A stretch of DNA of 22,294 bases from Archangiaceae bacterium. Its GTDB lineage: Bacteria > Myxococcota > Myxococcia > Myxococcales > Myxococcaceae. The position numbers and the translations under genes were made by a program. This document shows, one piece after another, positions 1 through 6,712 of the stretch. The DNA is taken from assembly GCA_043750125.1 (NCBI GenBank), contig JAYVCD010000220.1:1-22294 (forward strand). The letters run 5' to 3'. The stretch's first letter is position 1; every line of letters begins with the position of its first letter. The notes beneath the pieces are model-generated. The model worked only from the letters and a program-made list of their open reading frames with translations. It was not told where the DNA came from and ran no database searches.

Positions 1-1835
1 GAAGCGTGCTCCACCACCACCTGGCACGTGAGACGCGGGCGGTGTTTGGTCCGCCCGCGAAGCCTACCGATCGTCTGCTCGATGAGGCGATGCGGGACAA
101 GGTATTCCGCACCACGCTGGAAGAGGTGGCGAAGGAAAAGAACCAATCGATCGAGGCAGTCCAGGGCGAGGCCAGGCGAAACCTCGACGAGATCGCCGCG
201 CGCTACATGCCTTCGGTGGTGGCGGTCGCTGCGCCGGTGCTGCGCTGGGTCTTCAACCGGATCTACGACGGAATCGAGGTCGACGAGGCAGGGCTCGAGC
301 GGGCGATGAAAGCGGCGGCGCACACCCCGGTGGTGATTACGCCCAGCCACAAGAGCCACATCGACTACCTGGTGATGAGCCACGTTCTGTGGGAACGCGG
401 GTACGCCGTTCCGGTGGTTGCCGCCGGCGCGAACCTGTCTTTTTTTCCGCTCGGCCCCTTCCTTCGTCGCGGAGGCGCTTTCTTTCTTCGCCGGACCTTC
501 AAGGGCGACAAGATCTACGGAGCGGCGTTTCGCGCCTACCTGAAGAAGCTCGTCCACGACGGAATCCACCACGAGTTCTTCCCGGAAGGAGGCCGTTCGC
601 GCACCGGCAAGCTGCTGCAGCCGAAGCTCGGAATGTTCACCTGGCTCGTGGACGCGGTGCTCGAAGGTGCGCGCGACGACCTGCTCTTCGTTCCGGTGGC
701 GATCGACTACGAGAAGGTCGTCGAGGGCGCCAGCTACACCGCCGAGCTTCGCGGGGGCGAGAAGAAGCCCGAAGACCTGTCGGCTCTGCTGTCGGCGCCC
801 AAGGTGCTCTCGGGAAACTACGGGCGCATTCACCTCGGCTTCGACGAGCCGGTGTCGCTCGCGGCCTTGATGCTGGAGCGCGGCATCGATCGTCGAGGCG
901 TGGTCACCGATGAGCAGAAGAAGGGCCTGGTCCGTGCACTGGGAAACCGGGTGATGTACGGAATTGGTCGGGTGTCGACGGTCACGCCGCACGCGCTGCT
1001 GGCGGCAGCCTTGCTCGCGCACCGCCGACGCGGCGTCTCGGCCCGCGAGGTCACCGATCGGGTCGTGCTGTTGCGCAAGGTAGCCGGCGACCTGCGTGCC
1101 CCGTTTTCGCGCCAGCTGCTCAATGCGCCTTCGAGCCCGACGGCCCTGGGCCCGGTCGCCGACGCGCTGAAGACCTTCATCGAGGAAGGAATGCTCAAGC
1201 CCGCCCAGGCGAAGGGCGAGACGATCTATGCACTCGATGACGACCGGCGATCCGAGCTCAGCTTCTACAAGAACACCCTGTTGAATCTCGTTGCGGGTCG
1301 AACGATCGTCGCCTGCGCATTGCTGGCTGACGAGACCCAGCTCACGCTGTCTGCGGTCTCTGAGCGCGCCCACTTCCTCTCGCGGCTCTTCAAGTTCGAG
1401 TTCGTCTTTCCAGTGGGGAAGAGCTTCGATCAAATCTTCGAAGACACGGTCGAGCACCTGGTCACACTGGGGCTGGTGGTGAAAGAAGGCCCGCAGCTGA
1501 AAGTCGCTCCCGAACCCTTCGCCCGGCCGCAGCTCGAGTTCTTGAGCGACTTGATTCGTGACTACCTCGAGTCGTACCTGATGACCGCGATGACGCTGAG
1601 CGAGGTCGGCGCGGGCCTGGACAAGAAGGAGTTCATTCGTCACGCGCTCGACACGGGCCGGGCCGAGTTCCTCGCGGGAAAGATCACCACGGCCGAGTCG
1701 ATCTCTCGCACCAACCTCGAGAGCGCCTTGCAGTGGCTTCTCGATCAGCAGGCGCTGGTCGAGAAAGACAAGAAGCTCAAGGTCGGCTCGAAGCCATTGC
1801 CCGAGCTGGGCGAACAGATCCGCGCCTACCTCTGA
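1..1835 (+). CDS. plsB: Glycerol-3-phosphate O-acyltransferase PlsB/GPAT family (5' end outside the window)
   Basis: Acyltransferase motifs HKSHID (HxxxxD), GAFFLRR, FPEGGRSRTG and VPVAIDYE. The frame is open to the left edge of the window. Confidence 0.88.
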   Translation, partial: SVLHHHLARETRAVFGPPAKPTDRLLDEAMRDKVFRTTLEEVAKEKNQSIEAVQGEARRNLDEIAARYMPSVVAVAAPVLRWVFNRIYDGIEVDEAGLERAMKAAAHTPVVITPSHKSHIDYLVMSHVLWERGYAVPVVAAGANLSFFPLGPFLRRGGAFFLRRTFKGDKIYGAAFRAYLKKLVHDGIHHEFFPEGGRSRTGKLLQPKLGMFTWLVDAVLEGARDDLLFVPVAIDYEKVVEGASYTAELRGGEKKPEDLSALLSAPKVLSGNYGRIHLGFDEPVSLAALMLERGIDRRGVVTDEQKKGLVRALGNRVMYGIGRVSTVTPHALLAAALLAHRRRGVSAREVTDRVVLLRKVAGDLRAPFSRQLLNAPSSPTALGPVADALKTFIEEGMLKPAQAKGETIYALDDDRRSELSFYKNTLLNLVAGRTIVACALLADETQLTLSAVSERAHFLSRLFKFEFVFPVGKSFDQIFEDTVEHLVTLGLVVKEGPQLKVAPEPFARPQLEFLSDLIRDYLESYLMTAMTLSEVGAGLDKKEFIRHALDTGRAEFLAGKITTAESISRTNLESALQWLLDQQALVEKDKKLKVGSKPLPELGEQIRAYL

Positions 1836-1858: not shown

Positions 1859-3052
1859 ATGCGCCTGCCTTCGCCGCTTCGCTTCAGTCGGTTGGTTGGT
1901 CTGTCGGTTCCCCTGTTCTGCTCTGCCGCCTTCGGGCAGGGCTTCGAGCTCGATCTTTCCGAGCCTGAGATCCCGGCCGAGTTTCGCCCTTCGATCGCGG
2001 TGATCGGCGTCAGCTCTGGCGAGGCGACCGAAGACCCGTTGACGACGGCACGCGCCAGATTGCTCGAGGCCGAGATGCTGAAGGCGGCCAGTGGCAGCGC
2101 GGCCTTCGGGTTGGTGATGAACCCGACCCAGGTGGCCGCTCAGCTCGGGGCCAAGGCCGCCGAAGCCCGGAAGTGCGTCGATTATTCGTGCCTCGACGCG
2201 GTGGCGAAGAAGCTGAAAGTCGACCGGATCCTGATGGGCCTGGTGACGAAATCGGGCCCGGCGAGCTTGTTGACTGTTCATGGCTTCGACTCGGTGCTTC
2301 CTGAAGTGGTCGAGGGGCTGATCGAGAGCGGCGAGCGGGCAGAGAAGGCGAAGGCCGGAGGCTTCGCGGGCCTCCAGGGAAAGAGCCAGGCCCAGAAGGA
2401 CAAGGAATTCGTGCGCAGCGCGGTGCCGGTCTTCCTCGAGGTGCTCGAGAAGATCAAAGCCAGCAATGGGAAGATTGCCGTCGACAGTGCCGAGCCCAGC
2501 TCGGTCGCGACGCTCAACGGGGTCGAGGTCGGAACGGGCTCGTTCGAGAAGGTGGTTCCCCGCGGCAGCTATGACGTGAAGGTGTCTGCGGCCGGCTACA
2601 TGCCCTACGAAGCCAAAGTGGTGGTCGAGCCGCAGCAGGTGGTTCCGGTGAAAGTGCTGCTGGTGGCCAAAGAGCTGTTGAAAAAACCGGTGGTGGCGGT
2701 CGAAGGGCGCACCGGGACTCCGGCCTTCGAACGGCCCGGCCTGTACATCGCCGTCGCGGGCGTGGCGGCGATCGTCGCGGGAGTGCTGATCGGAATGAGC
2801 GCCAAGTCGGTCGAGGCGCGCGCGAAGCCCGATGGCGAGGGGGTGGTTTCGATCAGTCGGACGGCGGCGAAGGGCGCTCAGACCAATGCTCTGATCGCCA
2901 ACGTGCTGGTCGGAGCCGGGGCAGCAGCCACGGTGGGTGGTGGGTTGTGGTTCATGCTCACCCCCGCTCCATCGAAGAAAAAAGAAGAAGCGCCTCCCGT
3001 CGATACGGGCGGCGGCTTCGGCTTGATGGTCGGCTATTCGGGGCGCTTCTGA
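1859..3052 (+). CDS. Exported PEGA-domain protein
   Basis: N-terminal signal-like segment; PEGA-like segment (VDSAEPSSVATLNGVEVG...VPRGSYDVKVSAAGY); two Gly/Ala-rich hydrophobic segments near the C-terminus; ends in a beta-strand-like GYSGRF. Confidence 0.72.
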   Translation: MRLPSPLRFSRLVGLSVPLFCSAAFGQGFELDLSEPEIPAEFRPSIAVIGVSSGEATEDPLTTARARLLEAEMLKAASGSAAFGLVMNPTQVAAQLGAKAAEARKCVDYSCLDAVAKKLKVDRILMGLVTKSGPASLLTVHGFDSVLPEVVEGLIESGERAEKAKAGGFAGLQGKSQAQKDKEFVRSAVPVFLEVLEKIKASNGKIAVDSAEPSSVATLNGVEVGTGSFEKVVPRGSYDVKVSAAGYMPYEAKVVVEPQQVVPVKVLLVAKELLKKPVVAVEGRTGTPAFERPGLYIAVAGVAAIVAGVLIGMSAKSVEARAKPDGEGVVSISRTAAKGAQTNALIANVLVGAGAAATVGGGLWFMLTPAPSKKKEEAPPVDTGGGFGLMVGYSGRF

Positions 3053-3062
3053 AGGCACCCAA

Positions 3063-3536
3063 TCACGGCGAAAGGATCTCCTCGATCCTCCGCTCGAACC
3101 ACGCCTGATCCTTCAGGCCGTTGACGACGGCGTTCAAGGTTCCGTCTGACCGCAAGAACACCGTCGAAGGCACCTGGTTGACCCCGAGTGGGCCCAGCGT
3201 TTCGGACTTCGCGATCGCGACCTTCGAGCCGATGTTGAATCGATGCGACGCCGCGAGCACCAACTGAGCGTCGGGCTCGATTGAGAGCGCTAGGAACCCC
3301 ACGCCCTTCTCTTCGTATTTCTGGCGCAGCGCTTCGAGCTCGGGAAACTCCCGAGCGCAAACACTTCAACCCGGGACCCAGATGTTCACCACCCACGGTC
3401 GTCCCTTCAGCGTGTCGCGGTCAATCGCCTCGCCCGTCAGCGACTCGGCCTTGAAGTGCTCTGGAATTCCGCGGCGCGGACGGTCGACGTAGTCACACCC
3501 CGCGACGATGAGAGCCAGCATCGCAAGCCACTTCAA
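3063..3536 (-). CDS. TlpA/ResA-like thiol-disulfide oxidoreductase lipoprotein, predicted selenoprotein (UxxC; TGA at 3366-3368 read as Sec57)
   Basis: ORFs 3366..3620 and 3063..3302 share a frame, joined by 21 open codons. The joined protein reads MKWLAMLALIVAGC...LKGRPWVVNIWVPG-U-SVCAREFPELEALRQKYEEKGVGFLALS...LGVNQVPSTVFLRSDG, a TlpA-type Trx fold with the cis-Pro motif VP. The TTG start overlaps the upstream TGA (TTGA); an alternative ATG lies at 3521. Confidence 0.88.
3328..3365 (-). promoter_or_regulatory. Bacterial SECIS-like stem-loop directly 3' of the in-frame UGA
   Basis: mRNA: UGA AGUGUUUGC GCUCGGGA GUU UCCCGAGC UCGAAGCGCU. Perfect 8-bp upper stem (3338-3356), apical loop starting with G 17 nt after the UGA, and a lower stem with G-U pairs. 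Confidence 0.75.
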
Positions 3537-4465
3537 GGCAGACACTCGACCCGGTTGAGCGTCGACTTCACTCCCACCTCTTCGCTGGCGGTGAAGTACC
3601 CGCGCCCATCGAACCGCCACGCGACGGCCTCGCCCTGCTGCTCGGCGCTGACCGGCATGTTGAGGGGAGTCGCGGCAAAGATCTGCTCGAACGGCGCTTC
3701 TGGGGGCACCTTGAGCTGGACCAGGCGGTTGTACATTCGCAGCAGCAGTGCGGTGCCGTCGGGGCTGAGGGACCCTCCGGTGAGCGGCTGGTCGGTGGGC
3801 TGGGGAATCGTCAGCTCGGCCACTTTGATCAAGACCGCCGTCTTCGACGAATCCATCGGCTGGGGAAACTTGAAGACCACGCTCGGAGCCCCCGCGCTCT
3901 GCTTGACGGCGAGGTACAGCTCGCCCGAAACCGGGTGGGCAAAGAGCGTCTCGGCGTTGTATTTCTCGCCGCCGGGGTACTCGAAGCCGAACCGCTCGTA
4001 CCCGACCTTCACGGTTCCGACCGGACTACCGACCGCGACCTGGGGCTCTTGAACCCGGTAGATCGCATAGTCCGAGCGGACCCGACGGTTGTCGCCGATG
4101 TCACCGAGGAACAAGCAGGTACCCGAGGGACAGGGGCCGATCGTCATGTCTTCCCAGTCGACCGCCTTTGCGCCCTCGAGCTCGAAGCGCCCCAGGGGCC
4201 GGGCCTCAGTGTCCATCGCGAAGAAGCGGGCGGTGTCGCCCGAATCGTTGTGCGCGTAGAGGACTCCGGGGTTGGCGCGGCTGGCGACCAGCCCGGACAG
4301 CTCGATCAGGTCCGGGTCGCCCAGAACAGGGCCAGCCCGGGCAGGCCCGAAGCGACAAATGCCGCCGGTGACGACCGGAGGAACAGGCCCAGGAACCGGA
4401 GCAGCGGCGCAGGCCAGCACCAGACCGAAGCTGCAGATCAGCGCTCTTCCCCTGGGCCCAGTCAC
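3533..4465 (-). CDS. Uncharacterised lipoprotein, probable beta-propeller
   Basis: Lipobox-like LVLAC; motifs ELSGLVAS, HNDSG, DWEDM, GDIGDN, NAETL, QGEAVAW and FTASE resemble repeated propeller blades. The GTG start at 4465 overlaps the upstream TGA (GTGA). Confidence 0.7.
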   Translation of the reverse strand: MTGPRGRALICSFGLVLACAAAPVPGPVPPVVTGGICRFGPARAGPVLGDPDLIELSGLVASRANPGVLYAHNDSGDTARFFAMDTEARPLGRFELEGAKAVDWEDMTIGPCPSGTCLFLGDIGDNRRVRSDYAIYRVQEPQVAVGSPVGTVKVGYERFGFEYPGGEKYNAETLFAHPVSGELYLAVKQSAGAPSVVFKFPQPMDSSKTAVLIKVAELTIPQPTDQPLTGGSLSPDGTALLLRMYNRLVQLKVPPEAPFEQIFAATPLNMPVSAEQQGEAVAWRFDGRGYFTASEEVGVKSTLNRVECLP

Positions 4466-4857
4466 ATCGACGCGTCCTGAACGATGAGCCACTTCTCACC
4501 CTTTTTGTGGAGCACGAGCAGCGTCTGTCCCGATGTGGCGGGCTTGTCGGAATAGGTCAGCGTCCATTTCGCGATCATCGAGACGGCATCGGTGCGCTCG
4601 CGGGTTTCGAGGAACTCGAACGAAAGCGTCCCCATCGCCTTCTTGTCCGGGTAGCGCTTCTGGTAGCGCTCGAGCACCGCTTGCCGTCCGCGCGTCACGC
4701 CGGTCGGGCTGACAAAGACCGCGTCGTCCGCGTACACCGAAGTAAACGCCGGCAGATCGCCCCGGTTCCACGCCTCGGCCTGCGTCAGGATCAACGCCTT
4801 GACGCTGTCGGACCCCGAGATCGGAGCCGCCATCAGCATCAATGCAATCGGGAGCAT
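4462..4857 (-). CDS. SnoaL/NTF2-like (DUF4440-type) exported protein
   Basis: AEAWNRGDLPAFTSVYADDAVFV...GRQAVLERY...WLIVQD is an NTF2-like pattern; short hydrophobic N-terminus. Confidence 0.78.
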   Translation of the reverse strand: MLPIALMLMAAPISGSDSVKALILTQAEAWNRGDLPAFTSVYADDAVFVSPTGVTRGRQAVLERYQKRYPDKKAMGTLSFEFLETRERTDAVSMIAKWTLTYSDKPATSGQTLLVLHKKGEKWLIVQDASM

Positions 4858-6242
4858 GTCGCGAGCCTCACTTTCTTCATTTCACCCAGGAACTTCGCGG
4901 GAGGAAGGTAACCGGTGATTTTGGGGTCGACGAGCAGCTCGCCCATCGCATCGACGAACGCAACGGTGGGCAGCCCGGCGACTCCGTAGTGCGCGTACAG
5001 CTTCTCGAGCACCGCGTGATCGGCCGTTCCATCGACCTTGATGTTCACGAACCGCTCGGACTCGTCGGCCACTTCGCGCGTGCTGTAGACGTTGGTGTCG
5101 AGCTCTTTGCAGGCCGAGCACCAGTCTGCGTAGAAGTCGATCATCACCGGCTTGCATTCCGCCTTGGCTTTGGCCATCGCTGCGTCGAAGGGATCTGCGC
5201 TTCCCGATGTCTCGGCGCTGAACTTCATCTGCCAGGCGATCTCGTGCCGTCCATCGCTCACCGGACGAGCCTCACCCGACGCCGTGCGCACCAATACCGC
5301 GACAGCCACCAACGCAACGCCCAGGAATTTGAGCGCGAACTCTCCGAATCGCGCCTTGAACGAGAGATGAATCGCGCCGAGCAGCACCCCGAGCAAGACC
5401 ATCGCGACGGCCAGGCCGACGCCCGCCGGTTTACCGAGCGTCATTCCGAGGTTGGTAAAAAAGTCCCGCAGCACCGGGAATGCATCGCGCAGGTAGCCGA
5501 AGGCGAGCGCAACGAGCGCGACCCCGAAGAAGCTCTTCACCCATTCCATCCACGCGCCGCCCTTGGGCAGCCGAACGGTGAAGACGCCGATCAAGAAGAA
5601 TGGAACGCCGATGCCCAGCGCGTAGACGAACAACAGCCCCCCGCCGACGATCGGGTCCTGGGTTCGAGAGACGTAGGCCAGCACCCCGGTGAGAACGGGC
5701 CCGGTGCAGGGAGCGGCCAGGAACCCCGAGACGCTGCCCATCAGCAGGGCGCCCACGTAGCCCCCACCGCCGACGGTGTTGAGCCGGGTGGCCAACGCCG
5801 AGGGCAGCGTCATCTCGAAAGCGCCGAACATCGAGCTGGCCAGGACGAGAAGAAATACGGCGAGACCCACGACGACCCACGGGTTTCCCAATGCCGAGCC
5901 GAACGCCTTGCCGGACAACGCGGCGATCACCCCCAACGCGCTGAAAACCAGCCCCATGCCGATGACGTAGAGCGAGGTGAGGACGGTGGCCTTCGCGCGG
6001 CTGTCGGCCTTGCGGGCACCGAACACCCCGACGGTGATTGGAATCAACGGGTAGACGCAAGGGGTCAGTGAGGTCAGCAGGCCGCCCAAAAAGATGGCGG
6101 GCACCGCGACGAACATCCGTCCGCTCTCGAGGAAGCCTGCGGCGTCGAAGCCGCTGGTCGGCCCCGCAGGGAGGATTTCGGGCAGCACTGCGAGCCCAAG
6201 TGCAAACAGCGCTGCCATTCCCGCAACTTTGGTCCACCGCAT
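4839..6242 (-). CDS. dsbD: DsbD-family protein-disulfide reductase (CcdA-type TM domain plus C-terminal thioredoxin domain)
   Basis: TM cysteine motifs SLTPCVYPLIP and AAPCTGP; LPKGGAWM; C-terminal IDFYADWCSACK and GLPT. Confidence 0.88.
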   Translation of the reverse strand: MRWTKVAGMAALFALGLAVLPEILPAGPTSGFDAAGFLESGRMFVAVPAIFLGGLLTSLTPCVYPLIPITVGVFGARKADSRAKATVLTSLYVIGMGLVFSALGVIAALSGKAFGSALGNPWVVVGLAVFLLVLASSMFGAFEMTLPSALATRLNTVGGGGYVGALLMGSVSGFLAAPCTGPVLTGVLAYVSRTQDPIVGGGLLFVYALGIGVPFFLIGVFTVRLPKGGAWMEWVKSFFGVALVALAFGYLRDAFPVLRDFFTNLGMTLGKPAGVGLAVAMVLLGVLLGAIHLSFKARFGEFALKFLGVALVAVAVLVRTASGEARPVSDGRHEIAWQMKFSAETSGSADPFDAAMAKAKAECKPVMIDFYADWCSACKELDTNVYSTREVADESERFVNIKVDGTADHAVLEKLYAHYGVAGLPTVAFVDAMGELLVDPKITGYLPPAKFLGEMKKVRLATCSRLH

Positions 6243-6319
6243 AAGTCCCTTATATGCGGCGGCGGGCCCATTCGTTTCACGTCATTCGGGAGTCGAGTCG
6301 GCGGGAATCATTGGCATCT

Positions 6320-6712
6320 TCAAACCAGCAGACCGGGCCAGTTGAGCATCCGAAAAGCGATCAGCGGGTCGGCGATTCGGTACACCGCGATCTCCGTCAC
6401 TTTTACTCCCACCTATTCCTGGGTGATCTGATCGGCGGTGAAGTGAAGCGTCTGCACCGTCGTCGGAACGATCGCCACCGAGTCCCAGGGCCACTTGAAG
6501 CACGAGGCGCCCTGCCCGCTGGAGACCACTTTTCCGCCGCTCATTCGCACCAGGAACTCGCTGGGCTTCGCGCTCACGTAGCCCCACTTCTTCATCTTCT
6601 CGGGGTCCTCGTCCGGCTTGCCCGAGCGCCAGCCGTGACGCATCGGGCTCGGGCCAGTCGAGAGCCCATGTTCACCACCGCTTCGCTTCTCATCAGTCTG
6701 GGGATTGCGCAT
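6320..6712 (-). pseudogene. Truncated SPFH/band-7 (flotillin-like) gene remnant with an internal TAG
   Basis: Reads KWGYVSAKPSEFLVRM...GASCFKWPWDSVAIVPTTVQTLHFTADQITQE*VGVKVTEIAVYRIADPLIAFRMLN, then stops at 6320. SPFH-like sequence continues in frame past the TAG at 6413-6415 and is lost after RMLN. Confidence 0.7.

Follow-up and report, generated by a model that had tools for sequence, protein, structure and literature searches.

A TlpA/ResA-like lipoprotein gene of Myxococcota with a conserved in-frame TGA, probably read as selenocysteine

Does a TGA codon in the middle of a thioredoxin-like reading frame mark a dead gene, the border between two small genes, or the site of a selenocysteine (Sec)? 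The question is raised by contig JAYVCD010000220.1 of the Archangiaceae bacterium assembly GCA_043750125.1 (Myxococcota), whose 22,294 nucleotides we refer to as the window. Two open reading frames (ORFs) of its minus strand, 3366..3620 and 3063..3302, lie in one common frame, and the sole interruption of this frame is the TGA at 3368..3366. The stretch 3536..3063 on the minus strand is very probably one intact gene, in which the UGA 3368..3366 would be decoded as Sec to give a lipoprotein of the ResA/TlpA type. An initial annotation, made from the letters of the window, had interpreted the locus as a selenoprotein gene. This interpretation is now supported by the conservation of the TGA, the existence of orthologues with Cys, the selection acting on the gene, a hairpin downstream of the TGA, and the presence of selB, tRNA-Sec, and selD in the genome. 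We regard the gene as an unannotated Myxococcota representative of the known UxxC TlpA-like selenoproteins.

Reading frame, conservation of the TGA and fold

When TGA is translated as Sec (U), the stretch encodes 157 residues, M/LKWLAMLALIVAGC-DYVDRP...PWVVNIWVPG-U-SVCAREFPELEAL...GVNQVPSTVFL...EEILSP, followed by a stop (TGA 3065..3063). The active site reads VVNIWVPG-U-SVCAREFPEL, with VPSTVF further on. Our retranslation reproduced the coordinates, the length, the motifs, and the single-TGA frame of the initial annotation. The features of the gene are as follows.

3063..3536, minus strand: whole gene of 157 codons for a putative Sec-containing TlpA/ResA-like lipoprotein (TTG start 3536..3534, Sec codon 3368..3366, stop 3065..3063)
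3495..3536, minus strand: predicted lipoprotein signal peptide M(TTG)KWLAMLALIVAG-C14, with lipobox IVAG|C and Asp at position +2, from a reading of the sequence and the orthologues
3366..3368, minus strand: in-frame TGA, putative U57, at the N-terminal, nucleophilic position of UxxC (TGA in 39 of 49 loci; aligned with the first Cys of ResA)
3357..3359, minus strand: TGC of the resolving Cys60 of U-S-V-C (invariant in an alignment of 40 sequences; aligned with the second Cys of the ResA CxxC)
3338..3356, minus strand: putative core of a bacterial selenocysteine insertion sequence (SECIS), 7-bp stem GCUCGGG/CCCGAGC and apical loop AGUUU, 9 nt past the UGA
3168..3170, minus strand: codon of Pro123, the conserved cis-proline position, in VPSTVF (invariant in the same alignment; on the LPT/LPTT proline of ResA chains)

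The start codon TTG at 3536, which overlaps the stop of the upstream ORF (TTGA), is supported by the ATG or GTG found at the equivalent codon of the same-genus orthologues. The residues that follow it (K2, a hydrophobic run, and IVAG|C14) have the form of a short lipoprotein signal. A lipobox with an acidic +2 residue, as judged by sequence pattern, is present in 29 out of 30 orthologous loci. The product is predicted to be exported as a lipoprotein and lipid-anchored at Cys14.

We searched for orthologues in 121 genomes of the family and in 301 genomes of the phylum. The 52 matches of the family sample are clearly set apart as orthologues (E ≤ 2.4e-23, against 3.6e-13 for the following match); 41 of these rows contain a single TGA and 11 contain no TGA. 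The phylum sample gave 45 matches in 44 genomes of four families only, 39 with one TGA and 6 without. We then checked 49 loci (40 distinct sequences) codon by codon. The codon of residue 57 is TGA in 39 of them and TGC or TGT in 10, and there are no further stops or frameshifts. The checks on relatives that the initial annotation had suggested thus came out in its favour: the TGA is conserved among them at the position of the nucleophilic Cys, and orthologues with Cys at this position do exist. Among named records, the TGA form occurs in metagenome-assembled genomes (MAGs) of Myxococcaceae and Archangiaceae and in the cultured Pyxidicoccus fallax DSM 14698 (locus L056); one locus, L042, comes from a genome flagged as unpublished (G049), but it is one row among many and nothing hinges on it. 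Seven full-length homologues with CxxC were found in databases.

The part of the gene that follows the TGA shows no sign of relaxed selection. Among five same-genus sequences, with synonymous divergence (dS) of 0.4-1.4, the ratio of nonsynonymous to synonymous divergence (dN/dS) is 0.04-0.32 in codons 14-56 and 0.06-0.28 in codons 58-155. The values are similar on both sides, which indicates equal constraint before and after the TGA. Both halves of the gene are thus under purifying selection.

The joined sequence has a thioredoxin fold. It matches the Pfam families Redoxin (PF08534, 39.1 bits for a cut-off of 26.6) and AhpC-TSA (PF00578, 35.5 bits for a cut-off of 26), as well as Thioredoxin_2. 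Its best sequence match among solved structures is ResA of Bacillus (PDB 4nmu, E 5.7e-12). In this alignment, the two Cys of the ResA CxxC correspond to U57 and C60, respectively; E63 and P65 match the E-F-P behind them, and P123 matches the proline of the cis-Pro loop. The AlphaFold2 model, built from 40 orthologues, is one compact domain with a mean predicted local distance difference test (pLDDT) score of 92.1, in which helix 58-77 starts directly after U57. The top Foldseek matches of the model are ResA chains and thiol-disulfide oxidoreductases (ResA: template modelling scores 0.77/0.86, root mean square deviation 1.8 Å), followed by DsbE, DsbF, CcmG, and Sco-type proteins. The model and the alignment together place [C/U]xxC at the N-terminus of helix 1 and reveal the cis-Pro loop, i.e., the marks of the thioredoxin fold.

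Recoding hairpin, selenocysteine machinery and alternative readings

Bacterial SECIS elements are hairpins placed close behind the UGA, with a G early in the apical loop. The hairpin of the window gene, which sits within the codons for A-R-E-F-P-E-L, fits these rules and is predicted to be bound by SelB. In the window sequence a lower stem lengthens the helix over about 3328..3365, and the 48 nt fold with -22.3 kcal/mol (z -2.74; 3 of 200 shuffles equal). We computed its conservation and covariation on the 25 Sec loci first fetched. All 25 have the TGA, 9 nt, a 7-bp stem (consensus GCUCGGG/CCCGAGC), and a 5-nt loop AGUU[U/G], whose A20, G21, U22, and U23 are invariant. Paired cells make up 95.0% of the stem, against 89.4 ± 0.8% when columns are shuffled (0 out of 500 shuffles reach 95.0%) and 7.5-55.3% in a control in which the 3' partner was slid. 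Compensatory changes were observed at three pairs: CG to UA in 6-7 sequences, UA to CG in 3, and GC to AU in 3. They also alter amino acids (ARE-F-PEL becomes IQE-F-PGL), so that the RNA structure visibly shapes the sequence of the protein. In the loci L026, L033, and L036, A-R-E-F-P-E-L is replaced by I/L-Q-E-F-P-G-L, where the base changes behind R>Q and E>G compensate each other within the stem, so that residues of the protein co-vary as a result of the RNA structure.

The genome of the window (6.17 Mb in 460 contigs, 89.4% complete) encodes most of the machinery for Sec. It has selB above the cut-off (281 bits, 301.8 when the C-terminal piece is included) and tRNA-Sec (65.1 bits for a threshold of 47; called tRNA-SeC(tca) by ARAGORN). 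Its selD (G000:C278:3012-3932) has an in-frame TGA of its own, in GG-U-GAKLSP, and is of the Sec type. We also observed, at the end of a contig (G000:C370:1-261), a second SelD-like N-terminal fragment with Cys (AG-C-AAKIRP), which could be a paralogue or the sequence of another strain in the bin.

The distribution of selA in relatives is consistent with the use of Sec. The gene is present in 3 of the 4 same-genus genomes and in 105 of the 121 genomes of the family. It accompanies the TGA form in 38 out of 40 genomes, the exceptions being the window's genome (89% complete) and G086 (86% complete, 1280 contigs). Among the genomes with the Cys form, 8 out of 11 have selA; those without it (G016, G038, and G044) are 99, 100, and 98% complete. 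Every near-complete genome that has the gene and lacks selA thus carries the Cys form. Since related genomes are not independent, we take this co-occurrence as a consistency check and attach no statistic to it.

A search for further hairpins of this kind revealed another candidate. We scanned the genome for TGA codons followed by a spacer of 8-13 nt, a stem of 6 bp or more, and a loop NGUUN, with frames open on both sides, and obtained 9 rows, which represent 7 sites. Since the window gene served as the source of the pattern, the recovery of this gene is circular. Among the six other open-frame sites, an AhpD-like gene was the only one checked and supported; the remaining five look like noise. 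This gene (G000:C2:4028-5011, minus strand; locus L077:132-1112) is of the AhpD/CMD type, with two CMD-like halves, and its TGA lies in NQ-C-L-Y-U-TSAH, which gives CxxU. It matches TIGR01926 'peroxidase-related enzyme' (139.6 bits for a cut-off of 81.8) and Pfam CMD. As in the window gene, its TGA is followed by a spacer of 9 nt, a stem of 7 bp, and the loop AGUUU; the TGA of selD agrees with both in the lengths of spacer and stem, but its loop differs. We propose the AhpD-like gene as a candidate second unannotated selenoprotein gene of the genome.

Several observations weigh against the reading of the UGA as Sec. The initial annotation had named selA, selB, selC, and selD as the genes to look for. 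SelB, a Sec-type selD, and tRNA-Sec are indeed there, but selA was not found in the 89.4%-complete assembly, neither with the TIGR00474 model nor by tblastn with the SelA of the same genus. The selA flank of the same-genus genome G072 matches contig C280 of the window's genome from 3214 to its last base, 4295 (blastn), and this contig ends about 400 nt short of the start of selA as placed in G072. As the contig ends before the expected position of selA, we ascribe the gap to a contig break and do not count it as an absence, an explanation that rests on a single syntenic flank. The hairpin lies within the conserved AREFPEL codons, and its conservation is thus partly due to constraints on the protein. 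Moreover, one Cys form (L025) retains the identical hairpin, and two others (L023 and L024) have weaker hairpins with 7-nt loops at the same place, so that the structure may in part be vestigial or a consequence of the conserved peptide sequence. A scan of 3200..3450 with Rfam (E ≤ 10) returned only a chance match (RF01090, E 8.9), which is uninformative because bacterial SECIS of this type are apparently not modelled in Rfam. Finally, 17 of the 52 rows of the family sample count by their number of TGA codons alone and not by the place of the codon.

Some of these points would suit a read-through of the UGA without selenium, by a near-cognate tRNA-Trp or tRNA-Cys or by a tRNA-Sec charged with Cys, which would place Cys or Trp at residue 57. 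The assembly in which selA was not found and the relatives in which Cys forms are functional are compatible with it. Yet such a read-through does not account for a conserved and covarying hairpin at the spacing of a SECIS past the UGA, nor for the presence of selB, selD of the Sec type, and tRNA-Sec, nor for the selA found in 38 of the 40 genomes with the TGA form. The genome also uses TGA as a stop elsewhere, including at the end of this very gene. We thus consider it very unlikely. Still less probable is a pseudogene, i.e., a TlpA-like gene killed by a nonsense mutation and decaying in its 3' part. The frame is indeed interrupted under translation table 11 and public gene calls list the relatives only as fragments, but in 39 of 49 loci, drawn from many genera, the TGA occupies one and the same codon, the dN/dS of the downstream part stays at 0.06-0.28 with dS of up to 1.2, and other stops or frameshifts are absent. 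An equally slight chance is left for two small genes, one for a 56-residue lipopeptide and one for a C-terminal protein of 79-100 residues starting at an internal GTG or TTG: gene callers do report such C-terminal products (16 of 23 database matches have 89-103 aa), but the internal 'starts' are at differing codons among relatives, neither piece alone forms a thioredoxin fold while the joined sequence models compactly (pLDDT 92), and the orthologues with the Cys form are single genes. One gene with a UGA decoded as Sec is the reading that we retain.

Relation to ResA and TlpA, and the operon

The protein is expected to function like ResA and TlpA, yet it is an orthologue of neither. The best NCBIfam model is that of ResA (NF002854), far under its cut-off (55.9 versus 170 bits), and the TlpA model (NF047696) scores 24.1 bits for a cut-off of 230. 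With ResA (PDB 4nmu, 1st9, and 1su9) and the group of TlpA, CcmG (DsbE), and DsbF, the protein has in common the fold, the active site at helix 1, and the cis-Pro column. The conserved Glu found in ResA three residues past the second Cys is kept as E63 (the column of the PDB title 'ResA E80Q'). The predicted export with a membrane tether and the presence of a DsbD/CcdA-type gene close by are further points in common. The differences concern the nucleophile (Cys in ResA, putatively Sec here), its context (W-x-x-W-CxxC in the ResA chains, WVPG-UxxC here), and the anchor, which is a transmembrane helix in ResA and a lipobox in this protein. A further difference is that we identified no genes for the maturation of cytochrome c in the annotated part of the neighbourhood.

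The available selenoprotein models do not recognise the protein either. NF041054 (ResA-like WAxxUGC), with which it has a ResA-like fold in common, gives 15.1 bits for a cut-off of 300 and has UGC instead of UxxC. NF041383 (VPGUxxT family thioredoxin-like protein) does not match at E ≤ 1; the tetrapeptide VPG-U of its name recurs here, but in UxxC, not UxxT. The clade is not covered by any NCBIfam selenoprotein model.

The gene is the last of four minus-strand genes that overlap end to end, encoding a DsbD-like protein, a DUF4440 protein, a protein of 319 aa, and the putative selenoprotein. The neighbouring features are the following.

4839..6242, minus strand: DsbD-like membrane electron transporter, first gene of the operon (PF02683, 2.3e-54; Thioredoxin_7, 2.9e-13)
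4462..4857, minus strand: DUF4440/SnoaL-like gene of the SgcJ/EcaC family (PF14534, 8.4e-14; TIGR02246, 43.4 bits for a cut-off of 33.95)
3533..4492, minus strand: ORF of the 319-aa protein, with a lipobox-like N-terminus (LVLAC), directly upstream of the selenoprotein gene; its stop overlaps the TTG start (TTGA)
1859..3052: PEGA-domain gene, between the acyltransferase and selenoprotein genes
6..1835, plus strand: PlsB-like glycerol-3-phosphate acyltransferase gene, one gene further from the selenoprotein gene

The DsbD-like protein consists of DsbD_TM and a C-terminal thioredoxin domain with WCSAC. It matches the DsbD model NF001419 with 301.9 bits at model positions 171-572 only, and we therefore class it as a DsbD-like protein lacking the alpha domain. 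The 319-aa protein has no sequence match in Pfam, NCBIfam, or PDB, and it is possible that it is a partner or a substrate of the selenoprotein. Its ORF appears to be translationally coupled to the selenoprotein gene by the TTGA overlap. A scan of 2800..6600 for sigma-70 promoters and terminators was uninformative: no site resembled a promoter, and one site within the DsbD gene resembled a terminator, a yield below that of shuffled sequences.

ResA, TlpA, and CcmG are reduced by transporters of the DsbD/CcdA type. Since a DsbD-like gene is part of the same operon, a reduction of the DsbD type is the likeliest route here, and the DsbD-like protein of the operon probably keeps the selenoprotein reduced. 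We infer the following course of events from the sequence. SelB and tRNA-Sec would decode the UGA 3368..3366 as Sec, as directed by the hairpin with the 7-bp stem and the AGUUU loop that begins 9 nt further on, within the coding sequence. The product would be an exported thioredoxin of the ResA/TlpA type, anchored at Cys14, with the active site W-V-P-G-U57-S-V-C60, in which Sec would replace the nucleophilic Cys. Acting as a reductase, it would attack with its selenolate a disulfide (or a sulfenylated Cys) of a substrate in the envelope, and Cys60 would resolve the mixed selenenylsulfide. The DsbD-like protein would then reduce the resulting Se-S bond again through its C-terminal thioredoxin domain, with electrons from the cytoplasm.

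The comparison of neighbourhoods speaks partly for and partly against this choice of partner. Outside the same genus, G009 alone has the arrangement of DsbD, DUF4440, and 319-aa genes beside the orthologue. In six other genera that we inspected, two have a DsbD-type neighbour (G089 and G147), two have a glycerol-3-phosphate acyltransferase, and two have neither, which means that the DsbD neighbourhood is not kept in four of the six. The acyltransferase gene, PlsB-like, is a convergent neighbour in two genera with small genomes (L074:6435-8981 and L075:6252-8810), and its placement looks like the remnant of an older common neighbourhood. The conserved neighbourhoods of the same genus, G009, and these six genera gave no clue to the substrate.

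Public annotation and history of the family

Selenoproteins of this kind have been catalogued before. Passages of a 2026 review (PMC13188914) and of a 2022 review (PMC9312934) list a 'Prx-like thiol:disulfide oxidoreductase' (PF00578, UxxC/UxxU) and a 'VPGUxxT family thioredoxin-like protein'. The former review includes families of UxxC TlpA-like/cd02966 selenoproteins and has entries for thiol-disulfide isomerase-like and thiol:disulfide interchange selenoproteins, and parts of older papers (PMC1088965 and PMC1794560) give the same families. These entries make a UxxC TlpA-like selenoprotein a known kind, and the initial annotation overstated the case when it treated an extracytoplasmic UxxC protein as unusual. 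When compared by motif and domain class with the UxxC entries in these passages ('Thiol-disulfide isomerase-like' and 'Prx-like thiol:disulfide oxidoreductase'), the clade agrees with them in superfamily, in motif (UxxC), and in the first-position placement of its putative Sec. The examples given there come from anaerobes of the Geobacter/Syntrophus type or from marine metagenomes, whereas the clade described here is from Myxococcota and has the features of a lipoprotein. The string 'Myxococc' is absent from the main texts of PMC13188914, PMC9312934, and PMC1794560, as is 'Myxococcus' from two supplement files of the last. We found no description of a myxobacterial Sec-TlpA in open-access full text, a search that left aside the supplements of most catalogue papers, which may list one.

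In public protein sets, the gene is visible only in part. The initial annotation had expected that gene callers would split it, and this is what happens: in a collection of 5.8 billion proteins, 16 out of 23 matches are Sec forms, and all 16 are C-terminal pieces of 89-103 aa. One of these fragments (P0020) is named 'TlpA family protein disulfide reductase [Pyxidicoccus fallax]' in RefSeq, and its locus, L056, has the TGA. A passage of the preprint 10.1101/2022.07.06.499078 describes how RefSeq cuts unrecognised selenoproteins short at the UGA, and the fragments observed here are of this sort.

Among the 301 genomes sampled from the phylum, the clade is confined to Myxococcota. For the 40 distinct sequences (34 Sec and 6 Cys) we built a maximum-likelihood tree, rooted at its midpoint, in which many deep forks are unresolved. 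The Cys forms branch at five positions within clades of Sec forms. The simplest reading of this tree is that the ancestral form had Sec and that Sec was repeatedly replaced by Cys, with which the hairpin retained in L025 and the Cys-form genomes devoid of selA are both in agreement. We also observed a distant TlpA-like paralogue with one in-frame TGA (G057:C7:260271-260666, G077:C385:1746-2135, and G013:C40:344162-344554; E ~1e-10 to P0001, 33% identity) in a genus whose main orthologue is the Cys form; it may represent a separate lineage of Sec-containing TlpA-like proteins.

A broader scenario can be drawn from these observations, which we regard as rather doubtful when taken as a whole. The clade would be a Myxococcota-specific envelope reductase, ancestrally with Sec, that reverted to Cys at least five times, partly upon loss of the Sec machinery. 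In this genus, a dedicated operon of DsbD (beta-gamma), SnoaL-like protein, 319-aa lipoprotein, and Sec-TlpA would provide selenium-boosted reducing power to one envelope substrate of aerobic soil bacteria.

The gene leaves the understanding of how selenoproteins are made unchanged. Its recognition rectifies a misannotation that affects an entire bacterial family. It also provides a clean natural series in which Sec and Cys forms can be paired and vary with the occurrence of selA; together with cultured hosts, this series could be used to probe the benefit of selenocysteine in an extracytoplasmic thiol reductase.

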